A stretch of 64,000 nt of DNA. Source: Lentisphaerota bacterium (lineage in GTDB: Bacteria > Verrucomicrobiota > Kiritimatiellia > CAIQIC01 > JAGNIJ01). A program made the translations under genes and the position numbers. The stretch's first letter is position 1, and each line of letters begins with the position of its first letter. The notes under the pieces were generated by a model. The model did not search any database. It saw only the letters and a list, made by a program, of their open reading frames with translations, and was not told the origin of the DNA. Shown here in pieces: positions 1 through 33,713 of the stretch. Where the stretch lies: assembly GCA_052033915.1 (NCBI GenBank), contig JBPOJF010000006.1:275544-339543 (forward strand), read 5' to 3'.

Positions 1-632
1 ACCCCGTTGGCGATCGCATGGCCGCGCTGGACGGTCTGCCACGCGTCGAGCTGCGCCGCGCCGTTCGTGTTTTTTTCGCGCGGGTGCCAGCCGATCGCCG
101 TCGGGTAGAACAGGATGTCCGCGCCCCGGAGCGCGGCAATTCGCGCGGCCTCCGGATACCACTGGTCCCAGCAGATCAGAACCCCGACGCGACCAACCTG
201 CGTATCGACCGCCTTGAAACCCAGATCGCCGGGCGCGAAGTAGTATTTTTCATAATAGCCGGGGTCGTCGGGAATGTGCATTTTCCGGTAAACGCCCGCC
301 ACCGTTCCGTCCGCATCGATCACCGCGACGCTGTTGTGATACAGGCCCGCGGCGCGCCGTTCAAACACGGGCGCGATGACCGCCAGCCCGAGCCGGGCGG
401 CCAGCTTGCCGATGTGGTCCGTGGACGGACCCGGGATCGGCTCGGCCAAGTCGAACAACGCGGGGTTCTCCTGCTGGCAGAAATACGGAGACCGGAACAG
501 TTCAGGGAGGCACGCCATCGCGGCGCCGTCCGCCGCGGATTCCTCGAGCCGCGCCGAGGCCTTCGCGAGGTTCGCCTCGGGATCGGACGACATCGACATC
601 TGGATCAATGCGACTTTGAATTCTCGTTTCAT
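1..632 (-). CDS. Carbon-nitrogen hydrolase (N-carbamoylputrescine amidase-like), partial; C-terminus lies beyond the window edge
   Basis: The reverse-strand translation from the ATG at 630-632 reads MKREFKVALIQMSMSSDPEANLAKA...GVLICWDQWYPEAARIAALRGADILFYPTAIGWHP. It carries the CN-hydrolase catalytic Glu/Lys/Cys context (ICWD). The ORF track shows only the antisense artefact 18..1115. Confidence 0.8.
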   Translation of the reverse strand, partial: MKREFKVALIQMSMSSDPEANLAKASARLEESAADGAAMACLPELFRSPYFCQQENPALFDLAEPIPGPSTDHIGKLAARLGLAVIAPVFERRAAGLYHNSVAVIDADGTVAGVYRKMHIPDDPGYYEKYYFAPGDLGFKAVDTQVGRVGVLICWDQWYPEAARIAALRGADILFYPTAIGWHPREKNTNGAAQLDAWQTVQRGHAIANG

Positions 633-744
633 GCCTGGGCCGTAACCTGCGTCAAGCTGAAGTGTTTGTCAAGCGAGCCGCGGATTCGTATGCGGGCGTA
701 TTTACACTTTCTAGCGCGCGACTTATCTAATAAGATGTTTCGGG

Positions 745-2316
745 ATGAGAATGGAGCACGGGCAACACGTGTTATTCATGAAGCGGACAGCGCACAAACA
801 ATCCATGGTCTTGATGATCGCCGGCGCGGTCCTGGCTGTCACGGCTTCCCGGGGCGCGATTTCCCCCGAACCGCCGCCCAACGTTCCGCTGCCTCCGCCT
901 CTGATGACAACCGCTTTCGTGCGGGTCACGGTGCCCTGGATCGCCGTCCCCATCCAGAGCCCCCCGGTAACCTGCGAGGTGGGCAGCCACGTGATGTTGA
1001 TCCAGGAAAACGACGACTTCTTCATCACGATGTGCAGCAACCGGCATGCAGGGACCTTCCTGGCCGCCTTCCCCGCCAACACGCGGGCGGGCCGTCCGGC
1101 CTGGACCACGCCTGAGGAGAAGGTCTTCTTCGCGTACCGGACCACGTCGTGCCGCGGAACGTTGTACTTCAAACAGGGCGACGAACTGCCCGTGGACGCC
1201 CAGACGCGCAACGGGTACAAGGTCCGGCTGGAACGGTTCGGGCATGCCTTTCTTCTGTATCTGTCCCGAACCAATTCGGGCGTCGAGTTTTTTGCCGCCC
1301 CTCCGCCGCCAACCCCCGCACAGGTCGCCCATATCAAAGCCGGTCAGAAGGCGGCGACGACAGCGGTCCCCAAAACGCCAACCTCATCTTCGCCAAAGTT
1401 GTCTGCCGACTCACCTCCGCGCCCACCCCCCGTGAAGAGGTACATCGTCACTCCCGTGGGCCCCTCCACGAATGTATACACCATCGAGTTGTTGCCGCCC
1501 GACGTTTCGACCTCCACCACGGCAAAGGCGGATGGCAGTCTTATCACGCGCCTGTTCTCGAAGACCGAAAAGCCCGCCGTGGCCGCTTCTGAAAAACCGG
1601 CCCCCCCCAGGTCAACCGAAACGCCGGCCGAAAAGCCCGAGCCGGCTCAAAAGGAAGCGCCTGCGCTCGCCGACAAGGGGCCGGAGCCGCCGCCGACTCC
1701 GAAGACAGACATCAAGACGCTCTTCTCGATGTACAAAATACCGGTGCTGGCCGGGGCCTCTCTCCTCGTCCTCGTGGGTGCCCTTCTGTTGAAACGCCGG
1801 GAAAAGAACGCCCGGCCGGAAACGGAAGGGAAGACGCCCGGCGACACCGTGACGGCAGGGGCCACCTCTACGTCCACCACCCCGGGTACGCTCAACGATT
1901 TCTCGGGGTCCATCGCCTCCATGTCACTCGGCTCGGTGACGCAGTTCCTGAATTCGGACAAGGAAACGGGCACGCTCGTCATCAGGGACAAGGACAACGC
2001 GGAACTGGGAACGCTGATCTTCATCAAAGGCGAGATTGTCGACGCCCGCTCCCCCAAGAATCGGGGGCTGGACGCTCTGTACGAGGTGTTGAGACACAAG
2101 GAAGGGTTCTTCTCCTTCCTGCGTGAGGAACCCACGAACGTGGAGAAAACGATTACGCAAGGCACGATCTCGCTGCTGCTGGAGGCCCACAGAATCATGG
2201 ACGAGGAAGTGTCGCCGACGTCCCCGTCACCGCCCCTCCCTCCCGCAGCCGCCCCCAAACCGCGGCTCGCGGCCCCGAAGCCGGTCACCAAGCTTAAGCT
2301 CCACGGTAACCGCTGA
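745..2316 (+). CDS. Secreted/transmembrane protein with a C-terminal DUF4388 (PATAN-like) domain
   Basis: An N-terminal signal-like segment (MKRTAHKQSMVLMIAGAVLAVTA) is followed by a periplasmic domain of unknown function, a Pro/Thr/Ser-rich linker, one TM helix (YKIPVLAGASLLVLVGALLL), and a cytoplasmic DUF4388-like segment. That segment reads GSVTQFLNSDKETGTLVIRDKDNAELGTLIFIKGEIVDARSPKNRGLDALYEVLRHKEGFFSFL. The start may instead be the ATG at 778. Confidence 0.6.
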   Translation: MRMEHGQHVLFMKRTAHKQSMVLMIAGAVLAVTASRGAISPEPPPNVPLPPPLMTTAFVRVTVPWIAVPIQSPPVTCEVGSHVMLIQENDDFFITMCSNRHAGTFLAAFPANTRAGRPAWTTPEEKVFFAYRTTSCRGTLYFKQGDELPVDAQTRNGYKVRLERFGHAFLLYLSRTNSGVEFFAAPPPPTPAQVAHIKAGQKAATTAVPKTPTSSSPKLSADSPPRPPPVKRYIVTPVGPSTNVYTIELLPPDVSTSTTAKADGSLITRLFSKTEKPAVAASEKPAPPRSTETPAEKPEPAQKEAPALADKGPEPPPTPKTDIKTLFSMYKIPVLAGASLLVLVGALLLKRREKNARPETEGKTPGDTVTAGATSTSTTPGTLNDFSGSIASMSLGSVTQFLNSDKETGTLVIRDKDNAELGTLIFIKGEIVDARSPKNRGLDALYEVLRHKEGFFSFLREEPTNVEKTITQGTISLLLEAHRIMDEEVSPTSPSPPLPPAAAPKPRLAAPKPVTKLKLHGNR

Positions 2317-4522
2317 ACCGGCGGCCAAGAGCCACGCCCAGTCCGACAACAATCTGGATATGGCGGCGCGACAGTCCCTTGGGATTGTGGACCGCGACGA
2401 AGCAGATATCCTCGCTCTCCACAAACGTGAAGGAGTGCCCCTCATGGAAGACCGTCACGGAGTACGTCTCGGTCGAACTGATGTGCCGCATGTAATGTTT
2501 GACCTTCTTGAGGATCTGCGGCGCCATCGCCTGGACGCGCTCGGGCGATTCGACACGCCAGCTCGTGGCCAGCAGATCGCCGTCGCGGTGCAGAATGATG
2601 CATCCCTCGAATCCCGCAATCTGCCTGAACTTCTCCGCGACATCCTCCAGGCGCGGATGCTTCCCGCTCCACCGGCCCAACAGTTCGTCCACCAAGGCCA
2701 GTTGGCCGTACTTCTCCTCGAGCCATGGCTGGCCGGTGATCCTCTCGTAAATCTTCTCGCCGATACCCGGAACACGGCCCAGATCGTAGAGTCCGAAGAA
2801 GGGGCCGTGCTCCTTCCGGTTCTCCACGATCCGGTGGGCCATCGCATCGCCGATTCCATCGATCACACGCGTCAACTCCTCGGCAGTAGCCTGGTTCAAA
2901 TCCAACCCTCTTAAGAGAAGCTCGGGGACACCCGACAGGTTGGCGGGCGCGTGAATCGGCGCGGCAACCGGCGGCGGCTCCACTTTCGCTACGGGGGGTT
3001 GTGCCGGCGGCATGGCGACCGGCGCAGGCTTCTCCACTTTCGCCGCGGGCGGTTGCGGCGGCGGAGCCGCCGTGCTGCCGGCAACCAGATCCATCGGCAT
3101 GAACTTCTTCGGGGCCGGACCGCCAAAAGCCACGGGCGCTTCGACCGGCGGAGCCGTGGGCGCAACGGGTTTGGGTGCAGGCGCAACCGGCGCAGGGGCA
3201 GCGGGCTTGGGCACCGGTGCGATTGGCGCTACCGGCGGGGGCGCGGGCTTGGACACCGTCGGTGTGGGAGCATCGGGTTTTGGCGCGGGCGCGATCGGTG
3301 CGGACGGCGGAGGCGCAGGCTTGGATACCGCCGGCGCGGGAGCATCGGGTTTTGGCGCGGGCGCGATCGGTGCGGACGGCGGAGGCGTGGGCTTGGACAC
3401 CGCCGGTGTGGGAGCAACGGGTTTTGGCGCAGGCGCGGGCTTGGACGCAGCCTGCGCGGGAGCCGGTTCCGCGAGCTTGAACAAGTCGGGCAAATCATGA
3501 ACGGCCGACTTCGTGGGCACTTCGGCGGTTCGTTTCTTCAATTCATCCGGCGGAATGGCCGCGACCACAATCGATAACGGCAAGGTGACAAGTTCTTCGG
3601 AATCCGCCTTGGCGCCGGCGGAGAGATACGTCTTGGGAACAGCCGCCAGCAATTTGTTCATCGGCAACTTGACGGAGCCTTTCGCAAGCTGTTCAAAGAT
3701 CTCGTCCATTACGACATCCACCCTGGCATCCGGTGGAACCATCGCCGACTTGAATGTCGAGGGCAGCACGGCCTTCAACTCGGAGATCTTCAGGTTCAGC
3801 GTGACGGATTCCGCGGGCTTCGCAGTCGAAGCCGCGGGTTTTTCCGCCGCGGATGCCGATGCGGCTGCGGGCGCTGCCGGAGCGGCGGAGGGGCTGACCT
3901 TGAAGAGGTTCGGAAGTTCAGACGCGATCCGGTCCTGCCGGATGCTGCCGGTTCGCTTCTTCAACTCCGCCGGATCAACGGCGGCGACCACTGCGGCCAG
4001 CGGCAGCAGAACCTTCATCTCGCTCTTGGTTTCGGCGGGATTGGCGAGGTACTGCCGGGGAACACCGGCCAACAGGTAGCCCAGCGTTGTTTCGATCTTC
4101 CCCTTGGCCATCTGATCGAACAAATCCTCGATCACCACGTCCGCCTTCTCTCCCGATACCGCCTTGGCATCCACAAAGGAAGAGGGAACCACCTCGGCGA
4201 TATCGCGAAGGCTCATGGCCACCGTCTGAAGGCGATCCGAAGACCCGGAGTCATCGGAAGGCGGCACCACCGAGGATTCGGCCATCAGAGTTTCGATCTG
4301 CTGAAGAGCCGCGACAATTTCCTCCAATTGCATCGGCTTTTCACGCGGCGGAGGGGGCGCGCTCACAGCGGTTTTTTGGGTGGAAGGCGCAGCAACCTGC
4401 GGCGGAGGCGCCGTCACGGGAGCCGCAGGAGCACGAGACTCCTTGGGGTCCTCTTTCTTCTCCGCGCGTCCTTTGAAGATGCTTCCAAACAGGGCCATTT
4501 TTCCCGCCTGAGAGAGGCTCAC
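2294..4522 (-). CDS. Proline-rich multi-domain scaffold protein. It has a duplicated approximately 100-aa module, a ComEA-like helix-hairpin-helix, and a C-terminal Roadblock/LC7 (MglB/MglC-like) domain
   Basis: 742 aa. Two internal repeats are VPSSFVDAKAVSGEKADVVIEDLFDQMAKGKIETTLGYLLAGVP... and LPSTFKSAMVPPDARVDVVMDEIFEQLAKGSVKLPMNKLLAAVP.... A 3x Pro-rich repeat (APAPKPDAPAPAVSKPAPPPSAPI) follows. The HhH segment reads LNQATAEELTRVIDGIGDAMAHRIVENRKEHGPFFGLYDLGRVPGIGEKIYERITG. The C-terminal segment EGCIILHRDGDLLATSW...YSVTVFHEGHSFTFVESEDICFVAVHNP fits the Roadblock fold pattern. Confidence 0.65.
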   Translation of the reverse strand: MSLSQAGKMALFGSIFKGRAEKKEDPKESRAPAAPVTAPPPQVAAPSTQKTAVSAPPPPREKPMQLEEIVAALQQIETLMAESSVVPPSDDSGSSDRLQTVAMSLRDIAEVVPSSFVDAKAVSGEKADVVIEDLFDQMAKGKIETTLGYLLAGVPRQYLANPAETKSEMKVLLPLAAVVAAVDPAELKKRTGSIRQDRIASELPNLFKVSPSAAPAAPAAASASAAEKPAASTAKPAESVTLNLKISELKAVLPSTFKSAMVPPDARVDVVMDEIFEQLAKGSVKLPMNKLLAAVPKTYLSAGAKADSEELVTLPLSIVVAAIPPDELKKRTAEVPTKSAVHDLPDLFKLAEPAPAQAASKPAPAPKPVAPTPAVSKPTPPPSAPIAPAPKPDAPAPAVSKPAPPPSAPIAPAPKPDAPTPTVSKPAPPPVAPIAPVPKPAAPAPVAPAPKPVAPTAPPVEAPVAFGGPAPKKFMPMDLVAGSTAAPPPQPPAAKVEKPAPVAMPPAQPPVAKVEPPPVAAPIHAPANLSGVPELLLRGLDLNQATAEELTRVIDGIGDAMAHRIVENRKEHGPFFGLYDLGRVPGIGEKIYERITGQPWLEEKYGQLALVDELLGRWSGKHPRLEDVAEKFRQIAGFEGCIILHRDGDLLATSWRVESPERVQAMAPQILKKVKHYMRHISSTETYSVTVFHEGHSFTFVESEDICFVAVHNPKGLSRRHIQIVVGLGVALGRRFSGYRGA
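3178..3450. repeat. Approximately 72-bp tandem repeat (about 3.5 copies) encoding the Pro/Ala-rich linker of the scaffold protein
   Basis: Units begin near 3245, 3317 and 3389 (gggcttggacaccg..cggtgtgggagcatcgggttttggcgcgggcgcgatcggtgcggacggcggaggcg). A degenerate copy sits at 3178-3244. The repeat is in frame on the minus strand. Confidence 0.7.
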
Positions 4523-4633
4523 CGCCGCCGATTCGTCCGCCTCGCCGAACGACGCGCGAACCGGAACTGGAAGACGACTCTACCGACGGCTCAAAACCCG
4601 CTCATCTTTTTTACAACTTTATAATACAGATGT

Positions 4634-4662
4634 TTTACACAGTTGTGTAGTTTGTATATAGT
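4634..4662 (+). promoter_or_regulatory. Candidate sigma70-type promoter for mglAB (TTTACA, 17-nt spacer, TATAGT) with an overlapping inverted repeat TACACA-gt-TGTGTA (4636-4649), inside a strongly AT-rich island (about 4596-4690)
   Basis: Read directly from the sequence. It is a lone AT-rich stretch in an otherwise GC-rich window and lies 50 nt upstream of the mglA ATG. Confidence 0.4.
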
Positions 4663-4710
4663 TATTAAGACAGTATCGCTGCTCGGGTCCAAGGTAAGGA
4701 TGGGTGCGTA

Positions 4711-5358
4711 ATGTCTTTTATCAATTTTGCGCGCAAGGAAATCTCGTTCAAGATCGTCTACTATGGAACGGCCTTGGGCGGGAAGACGACAAACGTCGAA
4801 CAGATTCACGCCGGTATTTCCCCTCAATCCCGAGGAGAACTGACCACGCTGTCCACCAAGCAGGACCGGACGCTGTTCTTCGACTTTCTCCCCTTGAAGT
4901 CGGAGATCATCAAGGGCTTTGTGTCCAAGTTCCAGATTTACACTGTGCCCGGCCAGGTGATCTACAACGAAACCCGCAAACTGGTCTTGAGAAACGTGGA
5001 CGGCGTCGTTTTCGTGGCGGACTCCCAGTGGTCCAAGCAGGAGGAAAACGCCGCCAGCTTCGCCGACATGGAAGGCAACCTGAAGGACCAGGGCGATTCG
5101 CTCGACAGCATGCCGTACATCATCCAGTTCAACAAGCGCGACCTGCCGGATATCGCGCCCGCTCATTACATGAACTTCATGCTGAATCACCGTTCGGTGG
5201 CTGTGCCTTGTTTCGAGGCGGTGGCCGTTAAAGGGGTCGGGGTGCTGGAGTCGTTGAACATGATCGCGAAAATGGTCATCAGCAGTTTTATGCAGAAGAA
5301 CAAGATGGAGAGCACCGAGTTGCCAAGCGACCTGGCCGTTTCCCAGAAAGGTGTATGA
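4711..5358 (+). CDS. mglA: Ras-like small GTPase MglA
   Basis: MSFINFARKEISFKIVYYGTALGGKTTN...TLFFDFLPL...YTVPGQV...FVADSQ...IIQFNKRDLP. The P-loop, switch and NKRD motifs and the length (215 aa) match MglA family proteins almost motif for motif. Confidence 0.9.
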   Translation: MSFINFARKEISFKIVYYGTALGGKTTNVEQIHAGISPQSRGELTTLSTKQDRTLFFDFLPLKSEIIKGFVSKFQIYTVPGQVIYNETRKLVLRNVDGVVFVADSQWSKQEENAASFADMEGNLKDQGDSLDSMPYIIQFNKRDLPDIAPAHYMNFMLNHRSVAVPCFEAVAVKGVGVLESLNMIAKMVISSFMQKNKMESTELPSDLAVSQKGV

Positions 5359-5849
5359 CAATGTTCAGCGCTTTAAGCGAAGATGCCAGCCAGAACATCA
5401 ACCAGGTTCTCAGGGAACTCCTGGAGCAGGTGGAAGCCGAGGCCGTCTTTTTTTGCGACCGGGGCGGCAACATCATCGCCAGCCAGTCCGTCAACCAGCA
5501 GGACAACGAGGAGAATGTCGCGGCGCTGGCCGCGGGATCGTTCTTCGCCACCCTCACCATGGCGAAACTCGTAGGCGAAACGGAATTCCAGAACATGCTC
5601 CACCAGGGCGAGAAGACCAGTATTTACATGGAAGGGCTGAAGGGCGACATGATCCTGGTGGTCATCTTCAGCAAGGATTCGAATCCCGGACTCGTGAAGC
5701 TCTACGCCAAAACGGCCTGCCAGCAGCTTGAACCGTTCAAGCTCTCGCTGGTCTACGACGAGAAGCAGATGCGGACCATCCCGCACATGGAAGTGAGCCC
5801 GGGCGCCGAGGCGTTCAAAGCCAACAAGCCTTCGCCAAAAAAGAACTGA
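5355..5849 (+). CDS. mglB: Roadblock/LC7 GTPase-activating protein MglB
   Basis: It overlaps the mglA stop (ATGA). The 164-aa Roadblock domain (VFFCDRGGNIIASQS...AALAAGSFFATLTMAKLVGE...SIYMEGLKGDMILVVIF) has a C-terminal acidic/disordered tail, as in MglB. Confidence 0.85.
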   Translation: MTMFSALSEDASQNINQVLRELLEQVEAEAVFFCDRGGNIIASQSVNQQDNEENVAALAAGSFFATLTMAKLVGETEFQNMLHQGEKTSIYMEGLKGDMILVVIFSKDSNPGLVKLYAKTACQQLEPFKLSLVYDEKQMRTIPHMEVSPGAEAFKANKPSPKKN

Positions 5850-7229: not shown

Positions 7230-8453
7230 TCACTTTTCGAATGACAGCTTGATGCCGCGGCGAACAAAGGTTGGAATATCCAAATCCTCCCCGGCATAAA
7301 GGGTCGGTTCGATGTTCTTGAAGCGGCCCTTGTCGCCTGTGTCAAAATTCAACGTGGACTGGATCGCGCGGGCGCCCGAGGGCATCGCAGCCTTGCTTCC
7401 CGTCCGCAGCTCAGGGGCCAACCCTTCAACCACCTTTTCAGGAAATCCTGCCGCCGGCTCGGGGACATCGCCCTCGCCGGTCCAGCTTTCGGCGGCCAGC
7501 ACCGTCAGCGTGAGCCGGTTCTGCCAGGCCTCGTCCACCGTCGCCCCCATGAACAGTTTGACACCGGGTCGGGCGACCGCGGTCAACTGGGACATGATGT
7601 TCTGCACGTCGAGCAACGTCAGGTCCGGACCTCCGTTGATGCTGACCATCAGCGCCCCTGCCTGCGAGAGGATGCGGCCGCGATCCAGCAGAGGGCTCTT
7701 CATCAGTTCCGAGACGGCCGCCGACGCTTTGGCCGTACCCGTTCCCTCGCCGTAACCGAAGGAGCACCCGCCTCCGCTGTGCTCCACGAGGTGGCGCAAA
7801 TCGGCAAAATCCAGGTTGATGATTCCGGTCTTGGACAGCAGTTTCCACAGCGAGCGCACGCCCACGCCCAGCATGACATCCGCCTTGCCGAACGCGTCCA
7901 CCAGGCCGGTCCGGGTTTCCACCAGTTCCAGCAAGCGCTGGTTCGGCAGGGTAATGACCACATCGGCCTGCATCCTCAAGGCGCGCAGTCCCTCTTCGGC
8001 ATGCCGCGTTTTCAACTCTCCCTCAAAATCGAAAGGGGTCGTGGCAAAACACAGGGTCATGGCGCCCTGCTCGCGGGCGATGCGGGCCATGATGGGCGCG
8101 GCGCCGGTTCCCGTTCCACCGCCCAGCGCGGCCACGATCACGACAAGGTCCGCCTGCGAAACCAGTTCCCGCAGCGAGTCGCCGTCATCCTCGGCGGCCA
8201 GCTTGCCTACCGCCGGATCGCCCCCCGCCCCAAGTCCCTGCGTGATGCCCTTCCCGATCTGAACCCGGACCGGCACGCGGCAGGCGGAAAGCGCCTGACT
8301 GTCCGTGTTGACTGCGGCGACCGCAGGACCATCAGACCACCCGGCGTGCATCCGGGCCACGGCATTGCTGCCGCCGCCGCCGAGCCCCACAACCAGCATC
8401 CGGCTTCCTTTCGCCGCGCCGACTACCGCCGCATGGTCTGTTGATTCAAGCAT
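7230..8453 (-). CDS. ftsZ: Cell division protein FtsZ
   Basis: GGGGSNAV, the tubulin signature GGGTGTG, NTDSQAL and C-terminal DIPTFVRRG conserved peptide. The start is placed at MLESTDHAAVVG (ATG 8451-8453). The longer ORF reaching 8678 overlaps ftsA in another frame. Confidence 0.9.
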   Translation of the reverse strand: MLESTDHAAVVGAAKGSRMLVVGLGGGGSNAVARMHAGWSDGPAVAAVNTDSQALSACRVPVRVQIGKGITQGLGAGGDPAVGKLAAEDDGDSLRELVSQADLVVIVAALGGGTGTGAAPIMARIAREQGAMTLCFATTPFDFEGELKTRHAEEGLRALRMQADVVITLPNQRLLELVETRTGLVDAFGKADVMLGVGVRSLWKLLSKTGIINLDFADLRHLVEHSGGGCSFGYGEGTGTAKASAAVSELMKSPLLDRGRILSQAGALMVSINGGPDLTLLDVQNIMSQLTAVARPGVKLFMGATVDEAWQNRLTLTVLAAESWTGEGDVPEPAAGFPEKVVEGLAPELRTGSKAAMPSGARAIQSTLNFDTGDKGRFKNIEPTLYAGEDLDIPTFVRRGIKLSFEK

Positions 8454-8455
8454 AT

Positions 8456-9661
8456 CTATTTCCCGAAAATACCTTTGAGGATGCCCAGGACGGATTTTCT
8501 TTCCCGCTCCTTCTGCTCCATGGCCTTGAGGCCATACCGGGCCATGCCCACGATGGCCGCATATTCCGGCGCTTCCGTGACGACGGCCAACCCCGCCACT
8601 CCGCGGGGCTTTCCGACACGGCAAGGCAGGCCAAACACCTTCTCCGCGAGCTTGACGATATTCTTCATGTGCGCGCAACCACCGGCAAGGACCACGCCCC
8701 CGCCGAGCGAGTGAAGAAGGTTCTTCTCCAGCAACTCCGTCTTGACCAGGTTCAGGGTCTCTTCCATTCGCAAGTGGGTGATGGTATGAAGGTCGGACAC
8801 CTTCACGGCGCGCTCCGCCAGGCCCGATTCGGCCGGCAGGGCGACTTTCTGCGATCGAGCGGCCATTTCAACCAGCGCGCTCCCATACTCCTCTTTCAGC
8901 CGCTCGGCCTCGGCCATGGGAATCCGCAACCCGCGCGCGATATCGTTGGTGGCATGATCGCCGCCCACCCCGAAAGACCCCGCCGCGGCAATCGCGTTGT
9001 GCGCATACACGACGTAATCCGTCGTGCCGCCGCCCAGGTCGATGACGACGCTGCCGGCCTCCTTGTCCTCGGCCGTCAGCACCGCCAGGGCCGCGCAAAG
9101 CCCTCCGAACGCCACATCCTCCACATCCACCTGCACGCTCCGGACCACCTTGACGACGTTCCGCAGGCGCATGAGCAGTCCGTGGATGATCAGCATGTCC
9201 ACGGACAGCTTGGCCCCCTCCATGCCTTCGGGATCGATCACGCCTTCCTGGTCATCCACGTGGAAGTATTGGCAAATCGTGTGCAGGACCTGGCGGTCCG
9301 TCGGCAGGTTGACCGCGCGAGCGGTCGCCATCACGTGATCGATATCCGACTCCGTGATTTCCTTTCGGGAGTTCATGATCGGCACGCTGCCGCGATTGAC
9401 CAGACTCGTGATGTGGCCTCCGGAGACCACGAGATGAATCTGGTTGATGATGACCCGGCCGTTTTCCTCCGCGAGCCGGAGCGCTTCGCGGACACACGCC
9501 ACGGCGTTGTCGAAATCGACAATCTCGCCCTTGCGCACGCCGCGGGAGGGACACTCTCCCAGGCCCGTGATCATCAAGTGGCCGTCGGCCCGCGATTCAC
9601 CGATCACGGCGCGAACCACGGTCGTTCCGATTTCCAAAGCAACAATCAGCGGAAGATTCAT
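8456..9661 (-). CDS. ftsA: Cell division protein FtsA
   Basis: Actin-like ATPase motifs (VALEIGTTVVRAV, DLGGGTTD, VVLAGGCAHM). It sits between ftsQ and ftsZ. Confidence 0.9.
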   Translation of the reverse strand: MNLPLIVALEIGTTVVRAVIGESRADGHLMITGLGECPSRGVRKGEIVDFDNAVACVREALRLAEENGRVIINQIHLVVSGGHITSLVNRGSVPIMNSRKEITESDIDHVMATARAVNLPTDRQVLHTICQYFHVDDQEGVIDPEGMEGAKLSVDMLIIHGLLMRLRNVVKVVRSVQVDVEDVAFGGLCAALAVLTAEDKEAGSVVIDLGGGTTDYVVYAHNAIAAAGSFGVGGDHATNDIARGLRIPMAEAERLKEEYGSALVEMAARSQKVALPAESGLAERAVKVSDLHTITHLRMEETLNLVKTELLEKNLLHSLGGGVVLAGGCAHMKNIVKLAEKVFGLPCRVGKPRGVAGLAVVTEAPEYAAIVGMARYGLKAMEQKERERKSVLGILKGIFGK

Positions 9662-9683
9662 AACCCAACCAGAGGGAAGTCCG

Positions 9684-10550
9684 TCACTGGTACTGCACCG
9701 GGAAGTTCTTGTCCACGGTCATGTCAATAGCGGCAATCGCCTGACCCATGTCGGCTGTATGTTTCATGATTTCACAAAGTTTCGCCAGCTTCACATCCAC
9801 GTTCTCGCGCGACAGCAGGATGCGCTCTCCCCTCTGCAGAGACACCTCGAGATACTCCGGATGGCTGACGTCCACGTTCTTGATCCTTAAAAACCGGCTG
9901 AAGGAGGGCGAGTCGCAGACATCGAGGATATGCAGGGCGTTCTGCACTCCGGGATCGCCCACTCGGGCGCCCGGCCGCAGACCTTTCTCCTGCAGGCCGG
10001 TGATCGACGGGAGCTGTTGGGACACCGACGTGGGGCCCAGCACAAAGCCGGCCTGGTCCACGGCCAGCGGATAGCCGGTGCTTTCCTCGCCCAGCCGCGC
10101 CGCGGGAATGCGTTCCGAAACCGTGACCTCGAGAGTGTCGGGGAGCTTGCGCCGCACACTGACGGCGCTGACGATCGGCACGCTCATCAGGTCGTCGCGC
10201 ACCTGGCCGAGATCGATCTCAAACAGGTTCATCCCCTCGTCAATATGCGCGTACTCGCGGATATGCTCGGACTGGAGCTTGCCGTTTGAACGGAGATGGA
10301 GATTCCGGATGGTGAAGCGCGGGTTCCGGGAGAAGAGGGACTGGCCGATGAGTTTCGTCCCCAGCAACGTCATCCAGATGGTTCCCGCGACGACAACCGT
10401 CACGAGGAGAATGGCCCCGACGCGGTGCGCGCGCTCCCTGCGCTGATCCCTCAGGCGCGCGCGGACCATCAGGATGGAATTGCGCCGGTTCTCCCGGCGG
10501 TTGCCGAACAACTTGCGGTTCGAGTACTTGTTGTCGTCGCGATACCACAT
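9684..10550 (-). CDS. ftsQ: Cell division protein FtsQ (POTRA domain)
   Basis: Single N-proximal TM (VGAILLVTVVVAGTIW) followed by a POTRA-like region. Position between ddl and ftsA. Confidence 0.75.
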   Translation of the reverse strand: MWYRDDNKYSNRKLFGNRRENRRNSILMVRARLRDQRRERAHRVGAILLVTVVVAGTIWMTLLGTKLIGQSLFSRNPRFTIRNLHLRSNGKLQSEHIREYAHIDEGMNLFEIDLGQVRDDLMSVPIVSAVSVRRKLPDTLEVTVSERIPAARLGEESTGYPLAVDQAGFVLGPTSVSQQLPSITGLQEKGLRPGARVGDPGVQNALHILDVCDSPSFSRFLRIKNVDVSHPEYLEVSLQRGERILLSRENVDVKLAKLCEIMKHTADMGQAIAAIDMTVDKNFPVQYQ

Positions 10551-10568
10551 AAGTCAATCACTCCGCGT

Positions 10569-11465
10569 TCAATGTACACAGGCCATGCGGATAATTCGAT
10601 CACAAAGCTCCGGAAACTCGATCCCCATGGCGCGCGCCGCCTTGGGCAGAAGACTCGTCTCCGTAAAGCCGGGGATGTTGTTCAACTCGAGCACAAACAG
10701 CCCGCCGTCCGGCGTCAGCCGGAAATCCACGCGGCCCATGTCCCGGCAGTCCAGCGCCTGGAAGGTCCGTTGCGCCAGCCGCCGGCATTCCGCGACGCAT
10801 TCGCCGGGAATATCCGCGGGCACGATGTACTGCGTCAACCCCTTCGTGTACTTCGCCTGATAATTGTAAAATCCATCCGGCGCCTTGATTTCAAGCACCG
10901 GCAGAACATCTCCACCCACCACTCCGACCGTCAGTTCACGGCCGGCGATGAAGGCCTCGACCAGCACCTCGCCGTCATGTGTCAACGCCTCCTCCAGCGC
11001 AACGGGCCAATCCGCCTCATCGGAAACAATATGAACACCAATGCTGGACCCCTGCCGGATCGGTTTCACGACCGCGGGGAGCGGCAGGGATCTGCCCTGT
11101 CCTTTCCTGAGAATCTCGTACTTCGGCGTCGGAATGCCGTTCTCCACAAAGGTCTTCTTGCTCAGAAGCTTGTCGAACGACCGCCGGCTGGCCTCCGGCC
11201 CGGAACCCGTGTACGGGATTCCGCGCGTCCGCAGGATTTCCTGTATCTGCCCGTCCTCCCCGAATTCGCCGTGCAACGCGACAAAAACCGCCTCGATCCC
11301 GTCCGGCAGTTCCAGTTCGCGCCCTTGGAGATCAATCTCGGCAACGTCGTAGCCCACGCTCCGAAGCGCCTCCGCCACGGCCCGGCCCGAGTTCAGGGAG
11401 ACTTCCCGCTCCGACGACGGCCCACCCATTAAAACGCCCACTTTCTTGAAACGTCTTTGTGTCAT
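10569..11465 (-). CDS. ddl: D-alanine--D-alanine ligase
   Basis: GVLMGGPSSEREVS, VALHGEFGEDG, PAVVKP..GSS and VLELNNIPG ATP-grasp motifs. Confidence 0.9.
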   Translation of the reverse strand: MTQRRFKKVGVLMGGPSSEREVSLNSGRAVAEALRSVGYDVAEIDLQGRELELPDGIEAVFVALHGEFGEDGQIQEILRTRGIPYTGSGPEASRRSFDKLLSKKTFVENGIPTPKYEILRKGQGRSLPLPAVVKPIRQGSSIGVHIVSDEADWPVALEEALTHDGEVLVEAFIAGRELTVGVVGGDVLPVLEIKAPDGFYNYQAKYTKGLTQYIVPADIPGECVAECRRLAQRTFQALDCRDMGRVDFRLTPDGGLFVLELNNIPGFTETSLLPKAARAMGIEFPELCDRIIRMACVH

Positions 11466-12904
11466 ATGTTCTCGTTGTTCCTTGTCGCGTATTCGTCACG
11501 CGCCCAACCCGCGATCTTCTCCACGTCGCCCGCCCCGATCACGAGCAGCACGTCGCCCGCCCCGATCTTTGCCTTCACATATCGCCACGCCTCGTCGAGG
11601 GATAAAAGATAGCGGGTCGGCACCTGCCCGAACGACTGAAAATGCCCGAAGAGATCCTCCGATGTCCCGCCCTCGAGAGGCGACTCGGAGGCTTCATAGA
11701 CGGGGACAAGAACCAGTTCGTCCAAACCCGCGAACGCGGGCGGAAAGGCCTTCCCGAGCGCCCGCGTCCGGGTGTAGCGGTGCGGCTGGAAGACCCCGAT
11801 CAACCGTCGCCCTCCGCACTGCATGGTCGTCCTGACGAGCGCCTGGATTTCCGTCGGATGATGCGCGTAGTCGGAAATCACCAGCAGGTCCTTGCGATCA
11901 ACCACCTTCTCAAAACGACGCCGCGCGTGCGTGAAGGTTGCCAGACCCGCGCAAACCCGGCCAAAGGACAATCCCAGTTCCATCGCGGCGGCGCACGCGC
12001 CCAATGCGTTGAGCAGGTTGTGGCGGCCCGGCACGGGCAGGGAGAGCGCGCCAAGTTCCGCCCCCTTCAAAAGGACGTTCGCGCGAATCCGCGAAGACGT
12101 CTCTTCGATCTCCGTCCCGCGAAGATGTGACGGCGCGGACAGCCCGTACGAAAAACCCTTCGGGTTCTTCCCGCACACCGCCGCGGCGCGCGGATCATCC
12201 GCACAGTAAACGATCCGCCGCCGCACGCCGTCGGCAAACATCTGGAAGCAGCCGACCAACATTTCCTCGTCGCGGAAATGCTCCATGTGATCGTATTCAA
12301 TATTCGTAATCACTCCGACGTCCGGCTCGTACAGGATCAATGTCCCGTCGCTTTCGTCGGCCTCCACAACAAGCACCCGGCCCGCGCCGGCCGCGGCGAC
12401 TCCGCCGAGGGAGGGGATTTCGCCGCCGATGCAGAAGCCCGGCTCCAGGCCGCTCATCGCCAGCACATGGGCGATCATCGCGGAAGTCGTTGTCTTGCCG
12501 TGTGTCCCTGTGACCGCCACGGACGTCCGCCCCTCCAGCAGGGCCGGCAACACCGCGCCCCGCGGGTAAACGGGAATGCCCGCCTTTTTCGCCGCGAGGA
12601 TTTCGCCGCTGTCGTCCGGAACCGCCGTGCTCTTCACCAGCCAGCCGGTATCGGGGGCAAGATGCGATGGGCTGTGCCCGCAGAAAACGTTCACGCCGCC
12701 GGACGCGAGCGCCTCGCTCACACGGTTCGGGACAAGGTCGCAGCCGGTGACGCGAAACCCGTGGGCGGCAAGGTGCACGGCGATGCCGGCCATGCCGATG
12801 CCGGCAACGCCGACGAGATGAACGTGTCCCGGACAGCCGGACAGAAGCCGGCGGATTTCGGCGACCTGTTTGCGGCCGGATTCAAGGTTACACAGTGCGG
12901 CCAT
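11462..12904 (-). CDS. murC: UDP-N-acetylmuramate--L-alanine ligase
   Basis: VHLVGVAGIGMAGIA and TGTHGKTTTSAM Mur-ligase motifs. It overlaps ddl by 4 nt. Confidence 0.9.
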   Translation of the reverse strand: MAALCNLESGRKQVAEIRRLLSGCPGHVHLVGVAGIGMAGIAVHLAAHGFRVTGCDLVPNRVSEALASGGVNVFCGHSPSHLAPDTGWLVKSTAVPDDSGEILAAKKAGIPVYPRGAVLPALLEGRTSVAVTGTHGKTTTSAMIAHVLAMSGLEPGFCIGGEIPSLGGVAAAGAGRVLVVEADESDGTLILYEPDVGVITNIEYDHMEHFRDEEMLVGCFQMFADGVRRRIVYCADDPRAAAVCGKNPKGFSYGLSAPSHLRGTEIEETSSRIRANVLLKGAELGALSLPVPGRHNLLNALGACAAAMELGLSFGRVCAGLATFTHARRRFEKVVDRKDLLVISDYAHHPTEIQALVRTTMQCGGRRLIGVFQPHRYTRTRALGKAFPPAFAGLDELVLVPVYEASESPLEGGTSEDLFGHFQSFGQVPTRYLLSLDEAWRYVKAKIGAGDVLLVIGAGDVEKIAGWARDEYATRNNENI

Positions 12905-19386: not shown

Positions 19387-20034
19387 ATGAAATATGCCGT
19401 CATGATCGTAACCGCATTCTGTTGCTTGACCGTAGCTCATGCCGACCTGGTCATCACCGAGGTCATGTCCGCCTCCTCTCACACGAACAGCGCGGCCAAT
19501 GGCGACTGGTGGGAGTTGTACAATTCAGGCGCAGTCGCCATCGACCTGACCCCCTACTCCTGGGACGACAACAGCGCGGCCCCCGGTTCGGCCGACTTCA
19601 ATGGCCTGACGATTGGCGCTGGAGAAGCGATCATCATCTGCCAGGAAACCATCGGGGCAGAGCAAGCCTGGAAGGACCTGTGGGGCCTGTCGAGCGTCAC
19701 GGTGGTTAACCTTGGCAACACCAAATTCCAGAACTTCAGCAGCAGCGGCGACGAGATTCACATTTATGACGCATCGTCGAATGAGGTCACCTCGGTGACC
19801 TTCGGCGCAGCAACTGCCGGGTTCTCTTTCGCGTGGGATGCAGCCGGCAATTCCCTGGGGTTGAGCGTCAACGGCGTGAACGGCGCATTTCAGGCAACAG
19901 CGGCCGCGGGCGGCGGCCCGGATATCGCGTCACCGGGCGCAGTGGTCATTCCCGAACCCGGCACCCTCGCCTTGCTGGGCTTGAGCGGTCTTCTTGTACT
20001 CTGCCGGCGCTTTTCCCGTCCGCCATGGAGTTGA
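19387..20034 (+). CDS. PEP-CTERM-anchored surface protein with a lamin-tail domain (LTD)
   Basis: A signal peptide is followed by ITEVMSA...NGDWWELYN (LTD hallmark). The C-terminus reads VIPEPGTLALLGLSGLLVLCRR, which is PEP motif + TM + Arg-rich tail, i.e. an exosortase sorting signal. A GAGGAAG ribosome-binding site precedes the ATG. Confidence 0.8.
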   Translation: MKYAVMIVTAFCCLTVAHADLVITEVMSASSHTNSAANGDWWELYNSGAVAIDLTPYSWDDNSAAPGSADFNGLTIGAGEAIIICQETIGAEQAWKDLWGLSSVTVVNLGNTKFQNFSSSGDEIHIYDASSNEVTSVTFGAATAGFSFAWDAAGNSLGLSVNGVNGAFQATAAAGGGPDIASPGAVVIPEPGTLALLGLSGLLVLCRRFSRPPWS

Positions 20035-31613: not shown

Positions 31614-33713
31614 TTACTGGACCGGGGTCGCCGTCGCCGCCGCGGCGGCGACGGGCGCTGGAATCGCGCGCACATCCAACTGATCCACGAGCAGAGGCAC
31701 TCTCCCCGTCGGCCAGAACGCGTCCGCCAGGCTCACCTTGTTCAGGCCGGGCATAAGCGTCAACGGGCCGATGTTCCATTCCTGTATCTGGTTCATCGAG
31801 AACGTGTGCTCCGCCCCGTTCGACGCCTTGACCTTCTTGGACCCGGAAACCGAGAGCGCCCGAACCACGACATCCGCCGCCAGCGGCGCCAGGGTGAGAT
31901 TGTAGATATCCAGCGACGCGACCTCTTCCAGAACTCGCCAGTCCCTGAAGCCCTGCGTCTTCGTGTAGGCCCAGCCGTCGTCGTACAACCCGACGACCTT
32001 CCGGCCCGCCGAGCGGGCCTTTGCGAGAATGTCGTCGCGCGTGTTGTAGAAGATTTCCACCACGACCCGGTTTGAGTTCGCCGCATAGAAGTCGGCCCGG
32101 TTCGCCAAGCCGAGTTCCCTCAGTTTCAGGCCGGGCTCGTTGGCAATGACCACGCGCCGAGCGAAGTGCCGGCGCGGCCACTCCCAGGGTCCGACTCCCA
32201 CCGCTTCCCAGTACGACTTCGCAACCTCGAGATACGCGGCCTCCGGAAACCGTTCGAAGAACGCCATGGCCGTGTCGCGCCAGCGGTTCTTCACGTAGAC
32301 ATCCACCGGCTCATTCGGGATCGTGTAGGTATAGATCACGTTCGTGGACGGATGCGACTTGAGTTCATTCCACGGTTCGAACCAGCGGTCCACCAGCACC
32401 GGCGTGTTGCGCGGGAGATTCGAATCGAACCACTTTGAAATCTCGAAGTATGGCGTCGGCTTGCCGGTCAGTTGGGTCTGCAGGTACGCGGGATAGAAGG
32501 AAAAAACCAACACGACGCCGTAGAGAAGCCCGACCCCCGCCCTGCCCAGTCCCGGCTTCTTCAGCACGTCCGCCAGCCAGCCCGGCAGGACCTCCAATCC
32601 ATACGCGCAGAACACGAGAAAGAACGGGAAGACTCCGGACATGTAACGCGCTTCGTAGTTGGCCACCATCACGGTCCGCATCACCCCGAACACCGCGATC
32701 TGCATGACAATGAAGTAGACGATCCAGGCCCCTTCGGCCTGCTTCCGCCGCGCGCCGACGAACACCGCCCCCGCCAAGGCCATGACGAGGAACAACCAGC
32801 CCGCCGCCGACCCACCCCACGCGAACTGAAGAAACGCCTTCGTGGTTCCGGAAAGAAGGTTCTCGCCGCCCATGGAAACCACTTTCGCCGCCGTTTCCTT
32901 GTTCGCGCCGATCTGCTCAAGAATCGGCCGAAGCCCCCACGGCGCAAGCGCCATGGGAAGCAGGACCACTCCGTACACCGCCGCCAGCGCGGCGAGATTT
33001 CTTCCGAAGCATCCTTCCCGCCTTTGCCGGTACACGAGCAATCCAAAGAACAGGAGGCCGCCGGTCGCGCAAAGGATCAAGCCGGTGATCTGGCTGTACG
33101 CGACAAAGAACAACGCGCCGGCCAGAATCAGCAGATCGGGAACGCCGATCGCCCGCCGGCCCCACAGCGCGGGCACGATCCCCGCCGAGGCCAGGAGGAA
33201 CAGGAAGGCGCCGAAGACCAGCGTCGAGTAGAAATAGGCTTCACGGCACGTCGCGATATGGAAGGAGTTGACCGCCAGCAACGCGGCGAAGAGCAGCCCG
33301 AACACCGGCCCGCGAATCCGGCGACCCGCGAAGAAAGCCACCGGGACGGTCAGCACGCCGAACAGCGCAAAGGGAAAACGGACCATGGCGGGAGTGATGT
33401 GCCAGTTGAACAGCAAGAGAAACTCCTGCATGATGAACGCCGGCATCGGCATCTGCCCCGCCGCGCCCGACACCTCGAACCAATCCGTGAAAATCATCGA
33501 GGGCGGCACCTGGCGTTTCGCGAGATCCCAGAGCAGGATCGTATCGGCTCGGAACGCCGACAAACCCAATTCATACAGGCGGAAAAAGGCGGCGACCGCG
33601 ACGATGATCGTCAGCCAGATCCAATGCTGCTTTGAGATTCTTTCCGACGGCCCAGTCGAATCCGATACCATAAGTTCTCCACCGGCCACGCCGCACGGAC
33701 GGGCCCATGCCAA
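31614..33713 (-). CDS. GT-C family glycosyltransferase (GT39/GT83, ArnT/PMT-like)
   Basis: The N-terminal WIWLTIIVAVAAFFRLYELGLSAFRADTILLWDLAKR is typical of ArnT/PMT-type polyprenyl-phosphate-sugar transferases. It has multiple TM helices and a large periplasmic C-terminal domain. Confidence 0.7.
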   Translation of the reverse strand: MAWARPCGVAGGELMVSDSTGPSERISKQHWIWLTIIVAVAAFFRLYELGLSAFRADTILLWDLAKRQVPPSMIFTDWFEVSGAAGQMPMPAFIMQEFLLLFNWHITPAMVRFPFALFGVLTVPVAFFAGRRIRGPVFGLLFAALLAVNSFHIATCREAYFYSTLVFGAFLFLLASAGIVPALWGRRAIGVPDLLILAGALFFVAYSQITGLILCATGGLLFFGLLVYRQRREGCFGRNLAALAAVYGVVLLPMALAPWGLRPILEQIGANKETAAKVVSMGGENLLSGTTKAFLQFAWGGSAAGWLFLVMALAGAVFVGARRKQAEGAWIVYFIVMQIAVFGVMRTVMVANYEARYMSGVFPFFLVFCAYGLEVLPGWLADVLKKPGLGRAGVGLLYGVVLVFSFYPAYLQTQLTGKPTPYFEISKWFDSNLPRNTPVLVDRWFEPWNELKSHPSTNVIYTYTIPNEPVDVYVKNRWRDTAMAFFERFPEAAYLEVAKSYWEAVGVGPWEWPRRHFARRVVIANEPGLKLRELGLANRADFYAANSNRVVVEIFYNTRDDILAKARSAGRKVVGLYDDGWAYTKTQGFRDWRVLEEVASLDIYNLTLAPLAADVVVRALSVSGSKKVKASNGAEHTFSMNQIQEWNIGPLTLMPGLNKVSLADAFWPTGRVPLLVDQLDVRAIPAPVAAAAATATPVQ

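Follow-up and report, generated by a model that had tools for sequence, protein, structure and literature searches.

A conserved MglA/MglB gene cassette encoding a PATAN membrane protein and a putative Roadblock scaffold

Results and discussion

The window (the whole 64,000-nucleotide stretch of DNA that was analysed) contains a self-contained, conserved cassette of four genes, in which mglA, coding for a Ras-like GTPase, and mglB, coding for its GAP, are accompanied by a gene for a 523-aa PATAN-domain membrane protein and by a gene for a large proline-rich protein that carries a Roadblock domain of its own (henceforth "the scaffold"; Table 1). We propose, at about even confidence, that these genes form an MglA switch cassette, in which the scaffold would play a platform role resembling that of RomR or MglC, while the PATAN protein would be a variable localization or input arm. 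MglA/MglB pairs occur in many bacterial phyla, and to our knowledge Myxococcus is the only genus in which their localization is understood, with partial insight from Bdellovibrio and Thermus. Given its tight linkage to mglAB and the size of its family, more than 1,000 protein clusters, the scaffold offers itself as a specific candidate for the MglA partner still missing in other lineages; it looks like an uncharacterized wiring of the cell-polarity switch, in bacteria without studied MglA partners. The cassette also suggests that MglA-type polarity control extends to Verrucomicrobiota, whose cell biology has received little study.

Table 1. Features of the cassette, in coordinates of the window
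Feature	Coordinates	Strand	Basis
PATAN membrane protein gene	745..2316	+	ORF; Pfam DUF4388; 29 homologues; alignment
N-terminal hydrophobic segment, signal peptide or first TM helix	805..864	+	residues 21-40, Kyte-Doolittle
Periplasmic all-beta domain, tandem SH3-like barrels	916..1293	+	
Transmembrane helix, then KRREK (positive-inside)	1717..1797	+	second hydrophobic segment, residues 325-351
Cytoplasmic PATAN (PatA_N / DUF4388) domain	1903..2208	+	PF14332 E 6.4e-16, alignments
Scaffold gene	2294..4522	-	ORF from GTG at 4522, 742 aa
C-terminal Roadblock/LC7-type domain	2297..2707	-	family profile vs PDB; Pfam; hhalign
ComEA-like double helix-hairpin-helix domain (HHH_3)	2732..2908	-	Pfam 2e-16, ComEA structures
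Pro/Ala-rich disordered linker	2909..3469	-	35% P, 25% A; pLDDT <50
72-bp x 3.5 tandem repeat within linker	3187-3437		
N-repeat copy 2, residues 239-351	3470..3808	-	alignment A3; AF2 pLDDT ~90
N-repeat copy 1, residues 98-210	3893..4231	-	alignment A3; AF2 pLDDT ~90
Divergent intergenic region	4523..4710	.	AT-rich core
mglA, Ras-like GTPase	4711..5358	+	Pfam + PDB comparison
mglB, Roadblock GAP	5355..5849	+	Pfam, NCBIfam + PDB comparison

Gene organization

All four open reading frames are present where an earlier, sequence-only reading of this DNA had placed them. An AT-rich spacer of 188 bp, which holds one sigma-70-like match per strand (consensus matches only), separates the scaffold gene from the divergently oriented mglAB; at its other end the scaffold gene is convergent with the PATAN gene, and the two share 23 bp. 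Because of these orientations the four genes cannot form one operon or a single transcription unit; of the arrangement proposed earlier (membrane DUF4388 protein, scaffold, GTPase, GAP), the conserved company of the four genes stands. Near the cassette are ftsA and ftsQ, and ftsZ is 1.4 kb away from it. It had been remarked that no RomR/RomX/SgmX-like genes lie beside mglAB, and indeed the whole window is devoid of motility, pilus and RomR/RomX/SgmX-type genes; MglC, which like RomR, RomX and SgmX is a known MglA partner, was not found in the window either. A suggested link to a PEP-CTERM gene (19387-20034, 13 kb away) was set aside, as co-presence in the window is its sole support.

MglA and MglB

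Comparison with structures in PDB matched residues 1-193 of MglA to the Myxococcus xanthus protein (6h17, 5ymx; E 1e-59) and to its Thermus thermophilus counterpart (E 1e-56), and the identity to M. xanthus MglA is ~58% over the first 102 aligned columns (manual count). The hallmarks of MglA are a P-loop GxxxxGKT, an intrinsic Arg-Thr within switch I, a TxxGQ motif that has the catalytic Gln and carries Thr where Asp would otherwise stand, and NKxD. The alignment reveals the corresponding GTALGGKT, DRTLFFDF (DRT), TVPGQ and NKRD, and on the similarity over the whole G domain together with this motif set the protein belongs to the MglA family (Group 1-type). MglB resembles its M. xanthus namesake (6h5b, E 2.6e-19) and matches Pfam Robl_LC7 with 40 bits (cut-off 23), but with 72 bits it falls short of the cut-off of 200 set for the GTPase-activating protein MglB (NCBIfam equivalog NF052242), hence by sequence we classify it as a family member outside this narrow equivalog. 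Judged from these comparisons, the two genes are clearly orthologous to the Myxococcus pair, and the earlier description of a near-textbook pair is borne out by the E-values and the catalytic motifs. The mglB start and the mglA stop share 4 bp (ATGA), an overlap through which mglB is predicted to be translationally coupled to mglA. According to our own mapping from the alignment, the MglB position equivalent to R115, which contacts MglC, is occupied by Lys (alignment consensus "GLVKLY").

The scaffold

The scaffold probably starts at an ATG at 4498 rather than at the GTG at 4522: the resulting 734-aa protein has a conserved N-terminus (MALFGSIF) and is 100% identical to a database copy of the same length (P0001). 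Hydropathy analysis detected no hydrophobic segment, signal peptide or membrane anchor, so the protein is expected to be cytoplasmic. Its N-terminal part contains two copies of a ~110-aa alpha/beta domain (the N-repeat), overlooked in the sequence-only reading, and structure modelling was carried out for these copies and for the periplasmic domain of the PATAN protein. We found no relative of the N-repeat in PDB, Pfam or NCBIfam, and it gave no profile-profile match to PATAN, Roadblock, the SH3-like domain or MglB; a domain without a solved or curated relative is thereby defined. It is present in 1,232 protein clusters, most of which likewise end in HhH and Roadblock domains: among the best 142 clusters, the Roadblock C-terminus occurs in 115 and the HhH in 99, which argues that the N-repeat-HhH-Roadblock architecture is under selection. 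Some members of the family lack the HhH.

The HhH region (residues 539-597) matches HHH_3 with 60.2 bits against a cut-off of 27, and finds the ComEA structures 8dss (E 2e-7) and 8dfk (8e-6). Hairpin 2 is ComEA-like (GIG-x-K), but in hairpin 1 the ComEA Lys has been largely lost across the family, mostly in favor of a hydrophobic residue, which makes DNA binding by this domain uncertain.

For the C-terminal domain, a single scaffold sequence reaches only 14-18 bits with Pfam Robl_LC7, below the cut-off of 23, but a profile built from 13 C-termini of the family detected the solved Roadblock protein 7f8f (E 2e-7) and dynein LC7 (~2e-3 to 1e-2), and 9 of the 13 members match PF03259 (best 6e-5). 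The hhalign alignment of the scaffold C-terminus with MglB is in register (E 3.7e-4), with a probability of only 37%. On this sequence evidence we accept a Roadblock fold for the scaffold C-terminus and thus agree with the earlier view that the protein ends in an HhH and a Roadblock domain. The label "MglC-like" gains no specific support: the MglC structures 7CY1 and 7CT3 are absent among the matches of the 13-member profile at E<=10, and instead of standing alone as a protein of ~120 aa the domain forms the end of a 734-aa chain. It appears to be a generic Roadblock, whose similarity to MglC or MglB does not exceed that to generic LC7 proteins. In MglC, the surface motif FDI binds MglB and KRR binds RomR (PMC10329633, PMC7949163); a transfer of FDI onto the conserved F-E-G-C or D-G motifs of the scaffold Roadblock was rejected owing to the ambiguous register.

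The PATAN membrane protein

The start of this gene is uncertain (745, 751 or 778); its homologues begin near M12 (778), and a database copy (P0054) has 521 aa. Two hydrophobic segments were called by the Kyte-Doolittle method (19-residue window, >=1.6), and the KRREK sequence following the second one indicates, by the positive-inside rule, that the C-terminus is cytoplasmic. The periplasmic SH3-like domain is duplicated in some homologues (P0072-74). Residues 387-488 match positions 1-121 of the 122 in PF14332 with 58.9 bits (cut-off 25), and a conserved basic tail (...KLKLHGNR) follows the domain. A transmembrane protein with a cytoplasmic DUF4388 tail is just what had been described earlier; the literature likewise agrees that DUF4388 is the PATAN domain and that comparative genomics ties it to MglA/MglB (Makarova 2006; PMC4316618).

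Conservation of the neighborhood

We counted gene linkage in 17 loci with usable flanks (16 fetched ones and the window). In 15 of them mglA adjoins the scaffold gene, while the identity of the scaffold C-terminus across linked loci falls from 84% to ~29%. A PATAN protein belongs to the cassette in 14 loci: ten encode the SH3-TM-PATAN form, which is that of the verrucomicrobial clade, three an FHA-PATAN protein (the partners in L015 and L016 also pass PF14332), and one a truncated PATAN+FHA call. Conversely, look-ups anchored on PATAN revealed the convergent scaffold gene in 3 of 3 cases. The flanks vary, with the dcw cluster in the window, L003 and L022, and radical-SAM/NadA, PKS, ribosomal or haem genes elsewhere; in L008 the cassette genes are co-directional, and only there Flp pilin genes stand beside them. 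Scaffold genes without mglAB within 3-8 kb were seen in L007 and L014. As many loci come from one verrucomicrobial clade, these counts are not independent. Additional searches yielded seven fragments (protein search with a diverse Roadblock profile) and seven loci (metagenome scan). Both neighbors are thus retained by mglAB in related and in distant genomes, and the assignments to PF14332, HHH_3 and PF03259 hold, the last one through the family.

Proposed function

In the proposed switch, MglA and MglB are the GTPase and its GAP, and the cytoplasmic scaffold would serve as a platform and determine the site of switch action. The scaffold Roadblock may dimerize and stack on the MglB Roadblock dimer or on an MglA-MglB complex, as MglC does between RomR and MglB or as in Ragulator-Rag, whereas the proline-rich linker, the HhH and the two N-repeats could tie the complex to other cell structures, possibly DNA. 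The PATAN protein would be an exchangeable localization or input arm: anchored in the inner membrane in the verrucomicrobial clade, where its periplasmic tandem SH3-like domains may read the cell wall, and replaced in other clades by FHA-PATAN, a soluble protein presumed to sense phospho-threonine. Two such alternative inputs suggest that different signals feed the same switch. The output is conjectured to be polarity, or the positioning of a surface or motility machine. We favor this model of the switch because of the firm identities of MglA and MglB, the recurrent linkage of scaffold and PATAN genes, the retained scaffold architecture, the Roadblock profiles and the stacked-Roadblock precedent (PMC10329633), and also because MglB has a Lys at the R115 equivalent and PATAN is both a binder of a pilus motor and a recurrent neighbor of MglAB; it is weakened by the missing match to MglC, the low hhalign probability with MglB, the loci L007 and L014, the large share of loci from a single clade, the lack of motility or pilus genes in the window and the altered hairpin 1. 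More tentatively, the N-repeat-HhH-Roadblock protein might be a widespread third core component of MglA/MglB systems in PVC and other uncultured lineages, replacing RomR/MglC and tethering the GTPase-GAP pair to the chromosome through the HhH and to another partner through the new-fold domain, so that polarity would be set relative to the nucleoid and not to a polar landmark.

A doubtful alternative is that active MglA recruits the scaffold, which would then be an effector of MglA-GTP or an output adaptor, with the N-repeats and the HhH acting downstream. The Roadblock dimers of MglB themselves bind MglA, the scaffold gene lies outside the mglAB operon, and RomRX has recently been re-read as an MglA-GTP effector (PMC13408092); however, the scaffold Roadblock is only remotely similar to MglB. 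We find it rather improbable that the cassette serves to place some component with respect to the nucleoid or the division site, with the HhH tethering the MglA switch to DNA. Retention of the HhH in most of the best family clusters, its ComEA-like hairpin 2 and the proximity of ftsZ in the window, L003 and L022 would fit such a role, but L001, L005, L008, L010, L015 and L016 have no dcw neighborhood, the Lys of hairpin 1 is mostly a hydrophobic residue, and some members have no HhH at all. It is very unlikely that the protein is a ComEA-type competence DNA receptor placed beside mglAB incidentally. The HHH_3 score, the similarity to ComEA structures and the automatic annotation of relatives as "competence ComEA-like" suggest so, but a protein without a signal peptide or membrane anchor would have no contact with incoming periplasmic DNA, the ComEA profiles stay below their cut-offs (TIGR00426 50.2 against 53.1; comE equivalog 42.9 against 152), the HhH makes up only 8% of a Roadblock-fused protein, and the linkage to mglAB is conserved. 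A local accident of synteny in one lineage, bringing together four proteins without a joint function, can hardly be credited: close relatives do have a longer stretch of gene order in common (CN-hydrolase, GATase, MBL and ftsZ in L003, L022 and the window), but the same four gene types recur with other flanks, another orientation (L008) and another PATAN architecture, down to ~29% identity.

Comparison with known systems

The neighborhood of PATAN and MglAB has been published (Makarova 2006; Wuichet & Sogaard-Andersen 2014, PMC4316618), hence this half of the arrangement is not new. The supplementary table of the 2014 survey lists PATAN 57 times, e.g. as "PATAN>MglA>MglB>", but contains 0 occurrences of an HhH/ComEA-like neighbor, and covers Verrucomicrobiota with a single entry, the Group 5 MglA of Methylacidiphilum (PMC4316618). 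The surveys share with our cassette a PATAN gene adjoining mglA-mglB, but describe neither the SH3-TM-PATAN and FHA-PATAN forms nor the scaffold. For the scaffold family our literature search found no describing paper; apparently this family, which the sequence-only reading had characterized only in part, is the undescribed element.

The M. xanthus module resembles the cassette in its orthologous MglA and MglB and in a second Roadblock component encoded with them. There MglC is placed between RomR and MglB in the order RomR, MglC, MglB, a logic of stacked Roadblocks (PMC10329633), but M. xanthus MglC is a free protein of ~120 aa, while here the Roadblock is fused to a 600-aa scaffold, the HhH and the novel N-repeats are extra, and RomX, RomY, SgmX and Frz genes were not seen. 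The length of the scaffold and its proline-rich disordered region are reminiscent of RomR; the scaffold has no Pfam match to the receiver domain (Response_reg) and therefore is not RomR. Its double HhH (HHH_3) is shared with ComEA (E 2e-7 to ComE operon protein 1), from which it differs in being cytoplasmic, ten times larger and Roadblock-fused, and in hairpin 1.

The cyanobacterial PatA-type (PATAN-REC) regulators PixG, PixE and related proteins have the PATAN domain in common with our protein, but combine it with a receiver; in the cassettes PATAN is joined instead to FHA, or to a membrane anchor plus SH3-like domains in the periplasm. A cyanobacterial PATAN protein binds the pilus motor ATPase PilB1 and steers where pili act (bioRxiv 10.1101/2021.06.11.447907), whereas no pilus genes are adjacent to the cassette in the window. 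Finally, an analogy of the Myxococcus proteins to eukaryotic Ragulator-Rag has been drawn (PMC10329633). With no orthology and with another GTPase and cellular context, Ragulator-Rag shares with our cassette only fold and logic, namely that layered Roadblock dimers of scaffold proteins fix a small-GTPase module to a defined cellular site.

Composition of the cassette

The core of the cassette is a canonical MglA/MglB pair. The 215-aa protein matches the solved MglA structures over residues 1-193 (M. xanthus, E 1e-59; T. thermophilus, E 1e-56) and keeps the P-loop, switch I Arg-Thr, TVPGQ and NKRD motifs; the 164-aa product of the next gene, whose ATG shares bases with the mglA stop (ATGA), matches M. 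xanthus MglB (2.6e-19) and Pfam Robl_LC7 (40 bits). Judged from these matches, they are orthologues of the MglA/MglB GTPase/GAP pair, as the sequence-only reading of this region had proposed. All four ORFs show a strong coding signal (GC3 0.73-0.81). The scaffold gene and mglA point away from each other; the 188 bp between them have an AT-rich core, and each strand carries one sigma-70-like match. With the PATAN gene the scaffold gene is convergent, the 3' ends overlapping by 23 bp. Overlaps of 16-47 bp occur in several genomes (the window and homologous loci L001, L003, L010 and L023); this may reflect a conserved compactness, or the overlap may be where antisense or transcriptional interference takes place.

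Features of the window and of homologous loci
Feature	Sequence	Position	Strand	Product or remark
Carbon-nitrogen hydrolase	window	3-635	-	N-terminal 212 residues, runs off left edge
PATAN membrane protein gene	window	745-2316	+	523 aa
PATAN/scaffold 3' overlap	window	2294-2316		23 bp
Scaffold gene	window	2294-4522	-	742 aa as ORF
Linker tandem repeat	window	3187-3437		72-bp unit x 3.5
Scaffold N-terminal peptide	window	4475-4498	-	MALFGSIF
mglA	window	4711-5358	+	215 aa
mglB	window	5355-5849	+	164 aa
ftsZ, ftsA, ftsQ, ddl, murC	window	within 7230-12904	-	division/cell-wall genes, beginning 1.4 kb from mglB
Lamin-tail protein	window	19387-20034	+	215 aa, PEP-CTERM sorting signal
Large ORF	window	28794-31343	-	849 aa
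Large ORF	window	31614-33713	-	699 aa
RodA and PBP2-type transpeptidase	window	39623-42873	-	
Receiver-PATAN regulator	L001	5367-6590		PatA-type
Coiled-coil protein and aspartate-semialdehyde dehydrogenase genes	L005	4813-5640		coiled-coil protein ~280 aa
Same gene pair	L021	2064-2933		
Two Flp/Fap pilin genes	L008	11089-11604		directly after mglB

In the 523-aa protein, the DUF4388 domain (now PatA_N, or PATAN) occupies residues 387-488 (Pfam 58.9 bits, cut-off 25). By hydropathy, the protein has one hydrophobic segment at residues 21-40 and another at 325-351, and KRREK comes after the latter; hence residues ~41-324 are predicted to be extracytoplasmic and the PATAN domain cytoplasmic, which bears out the earlier description of a transmembrane protein with a cytoplasmic DUF4388 tail.

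The identical database copy of the scaffold has 734 aa and all relatives start with MALFG/MALFD, so that the ATG at 4498 is most likely where translation begins. Hydropathy reveals no hydrophobic segment in the protein, which is therefore placed in the cytoplasm. It comprises a short conserved peptide followed by a helix, two ~110-aa N-repeats (residues 98-210 and 239-351), a linker of 185 residues (35% Pro, 25% Ala), a double helix-hairpin-helix (HhH; HHH_3 2e-16, ComEA structures 2e-7 and 8e-6) and a C-terminal domain of ~135 aa. The hydrophobic N-terminal peptide, which reads MSLLNF or MRLPFF in other family members, may serve as a short linear motif for binding or for contact with the membrane. 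The linker holds a tandem repeat (83% matches) encoding a 24-residue peptide repeat, and its length differs widely between homologues. As a single sequence, the C-terminal domain scores 14-18 bits with Robl_LC7, under the Pfam cut-off of 23. A profile built from 13 members of the family identified solved Roadblock proteins (7f8f, 2e-7; several dynein LC7 chains, ~2e-3 to 1e-2), PF03259 matched 9 of the 13, and an in-register hhalign alignment of the domain with the MglB family spans 90 columns (probability 37%, E 3.7e-4). On this profile evidence we accept a Roadblock fold. The HhH noted before stands, as does the second Roadblock domain as a probable fold; the label "MglC-like" is not adopted, since MglC structures are absent among the matches of the 13-member profile and the domain is part of a fusion instead of standing alone.

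Conservation of the gene neighbourhood

Loci were gathered from scaffold homologues, from species genomes, where a scan gave four loci (one "Spartobacteria" and three named Verrucomicrobiota MAGs), and from metagenomes, scanned with another subfamily, and all were scored with MglA, MglB, PATAN, SH3-like, N-repeat, HhH and Roadblock profiles. The scaffold gene is adjoined by mglA in 15 of the 17 loci with usable flanks, window included (exceptions: L007 and L014); MglB is detected in 13 of these 15 (no match in L020 and L021), and 14 loci have a PATAN protein within the cassette. This protein occurs with two input architectures: an SH3-like-TM-PATAN form convergent with the scaffold gene (ten loci: the window, L001, L003, L010-L013 and L022-L024), and a soluble FHA-PATAN protein directly 3' of mglB (L005, L015 and L016). 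The fourteenth, L008, encodes an FHA protein with its start called inside a PATAN domain; the FHA protein of L009, a Lentisphaeria MAG, has no detectable PATAN. In the reverse test, the genes of three distant PATAN membrane protein homologues each had a convergent scaffold gene, with mglA-mglB beyond it wherever the contig continued. Flanking genes differ between loci, and just three (the window, L003 and L022) have dcw genes close by; the four genes therefore behave as a unit. Many loci come from one verrucomicrobial clade and are not independent; most weight rests with the more distant L005, L008 and L009 (29-35% identity in the scaffold C-terminus); L015 and L016 belong to a different scaffold subfamily. 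Linkage within the cassette is tight and reciprocal, and the neighbours singled out in the window are conserved beside mglAB in related genomes.

L001 has, besides the membrane PATAN protein, an extra response regulator gene directly adjoining mglB. On the unrelated contigs of L005 and L021, genes for a ~280-aa coiled-coil protein and an aspartate-semialdehyde dehydrogenase adjoin the cassette; the coiled-coil protein may act as another partner in this subfamily. The 64-kb window showed no pilus, gliding or Frz-like genes, and the pilin genes of L008, a distant co-directional cassette (scaffold > mglA > mglB), are the only pilus connection seen among the loci, a hint.

The link of PATAN genes to mglA/mglB neighbourhoods is on record (Wuichet and Sogaard-Andersen 2014, PMC4316618, citing Makarova et al. 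2006). The 2014 supplementary table lists PATAN 57 times, has no HhH or ComEA entries, and includes Verrucomicrobia only with Group 5 MglA. In cyanobacteria, response regulators bind the pilus motor PilB1 through their PATAN domains (bioRxiv 10.1101/2021.06.11.447907), and a study of pilus regulation in M. xanthus had PATAN proteins among its candidates but left them unpursued. Full-text literature, of partial journal coverage, on MglA with Roadblock and helix-hairpin-helix, or on MglA/MglB with Verrucomicrobia/Planctomycetes, yielded no description of the scaffold. The arrangement, which the sequence-only reading knew from no experimentally studied MglA system, is new only in part: its MglAB-PATAN half was already known from comparative genomics, and the scaffold half appears undescribed and larger than first realised.

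Distribution of the N-repeat domain

An HMM built from 15 N-repeat copies was searched against 1.84 billion proteins (cluster representatives at 50% identity) and matched 1,232 clusters at E<=1e-3, 431 of them at E<=1e-10. Among the best 142 of the 1,232, a Roadblock C-terminus was found in 115 and HhH in 99, with one to four N-repeats; the remainder are fragments or long proteins (1,000-2,283 aa) in which as many as six repeats were detected. A Pfam scan of 26 N-repeat-only proteins or fragments revealed essentially no Pfam domains. Six database proteins (P0084, P0110, P0128, P0135, P0155 and P0157; 1,342-2,283 aa) have three to six detected N-repeats without HhH or Roadblock. By domain content, such long proteins form a second, wholly uncharacterised architecture of the N-repeat, a common domain with no relative known in Pfam, NCBIfam or the PDB. 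Automatic annotation labels family members "competence ComEA-like" or "Roadblock/LC7/MglB family".

Other genes in the window

The carbon-nitrogen hydrolase at the left edge is 71% identical to the gene adjoining the cassette in L022; its neighbour in L003 and L022 is a gene of the agmatine deiminase type (PAD_porph), which makes a place in the polyamine pathway probable. The long ORF 18-1115 (+), which covers it, is spurious. The ftsZ-to-murC assignments come from reading translations and from matching genes in L003 and L022. The lamin-tail protein agrees with the earlier mention of PEP-CTERM surface proteins; no link between its gene and the cassette was found. Two large ORFs with good coding signal lie amid glycosyltransferase and sugar-nucleotide genes and have no Pfam match at E<=1e-5.

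Proposed function

The Roadblock dimer MglC of Myxococcus is recruited by RomR and in turn recruits the MglB dimer via stacked Roadblock surfaces; MglA-GTP disrupts the MglC-MglB contact, and the authors likened the stacking to Ragulator and Rag GTPases (PMC10329633). By analogy, we infer that the scaffold is a platform for the MglA/MglB switch. Alignment places a Lys, in the window MglB and in the consensus of cassette MglBs, at the equivalent of the MglC-contacting R115, which fits such a platform but is weak evidence. The part of the switch that varies would be the PATAN protein, membrane-anchored with its SH3-like module facing the envelope in this clade, and equipped with an FHA domain reading phospho-threonine in others, both forms presenting the same PATAN domain to cytoplasmic partners.

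That the scaffold is an effector bound by MglA-GTP, a role indistinguishable from that of a platform on present data, we consider rather unlikely. The second HhH hairpin retains the ComEA-like G-I-G-x-K, and the first has, in most family members, a hydrophobic residue at the position of a Lys that is important in ComEA; the HhH may tie the complex to DNA. This domain and the nearby ftsZ are suggestive of nucleoid or division-site positioning, but the ftsZ neighbourhood is not conserved and we give this role a still smaller chance. A true ComEA is highly improbable given the cytoplasmic location and architecture, and the conserved neighbourhood argues just as strongly against chance juxtaposition.

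With the scaffold as platform, this cassette of the MglA polarity-switch kind is a concrete candidate for the organisation of MglAB in lineages without an identified RomR/MglC-type partner. With its long disordered Pro-rich region and terminal Roadblock domain, the scaffold could take on the work of both RomR and MglC within a single chain.
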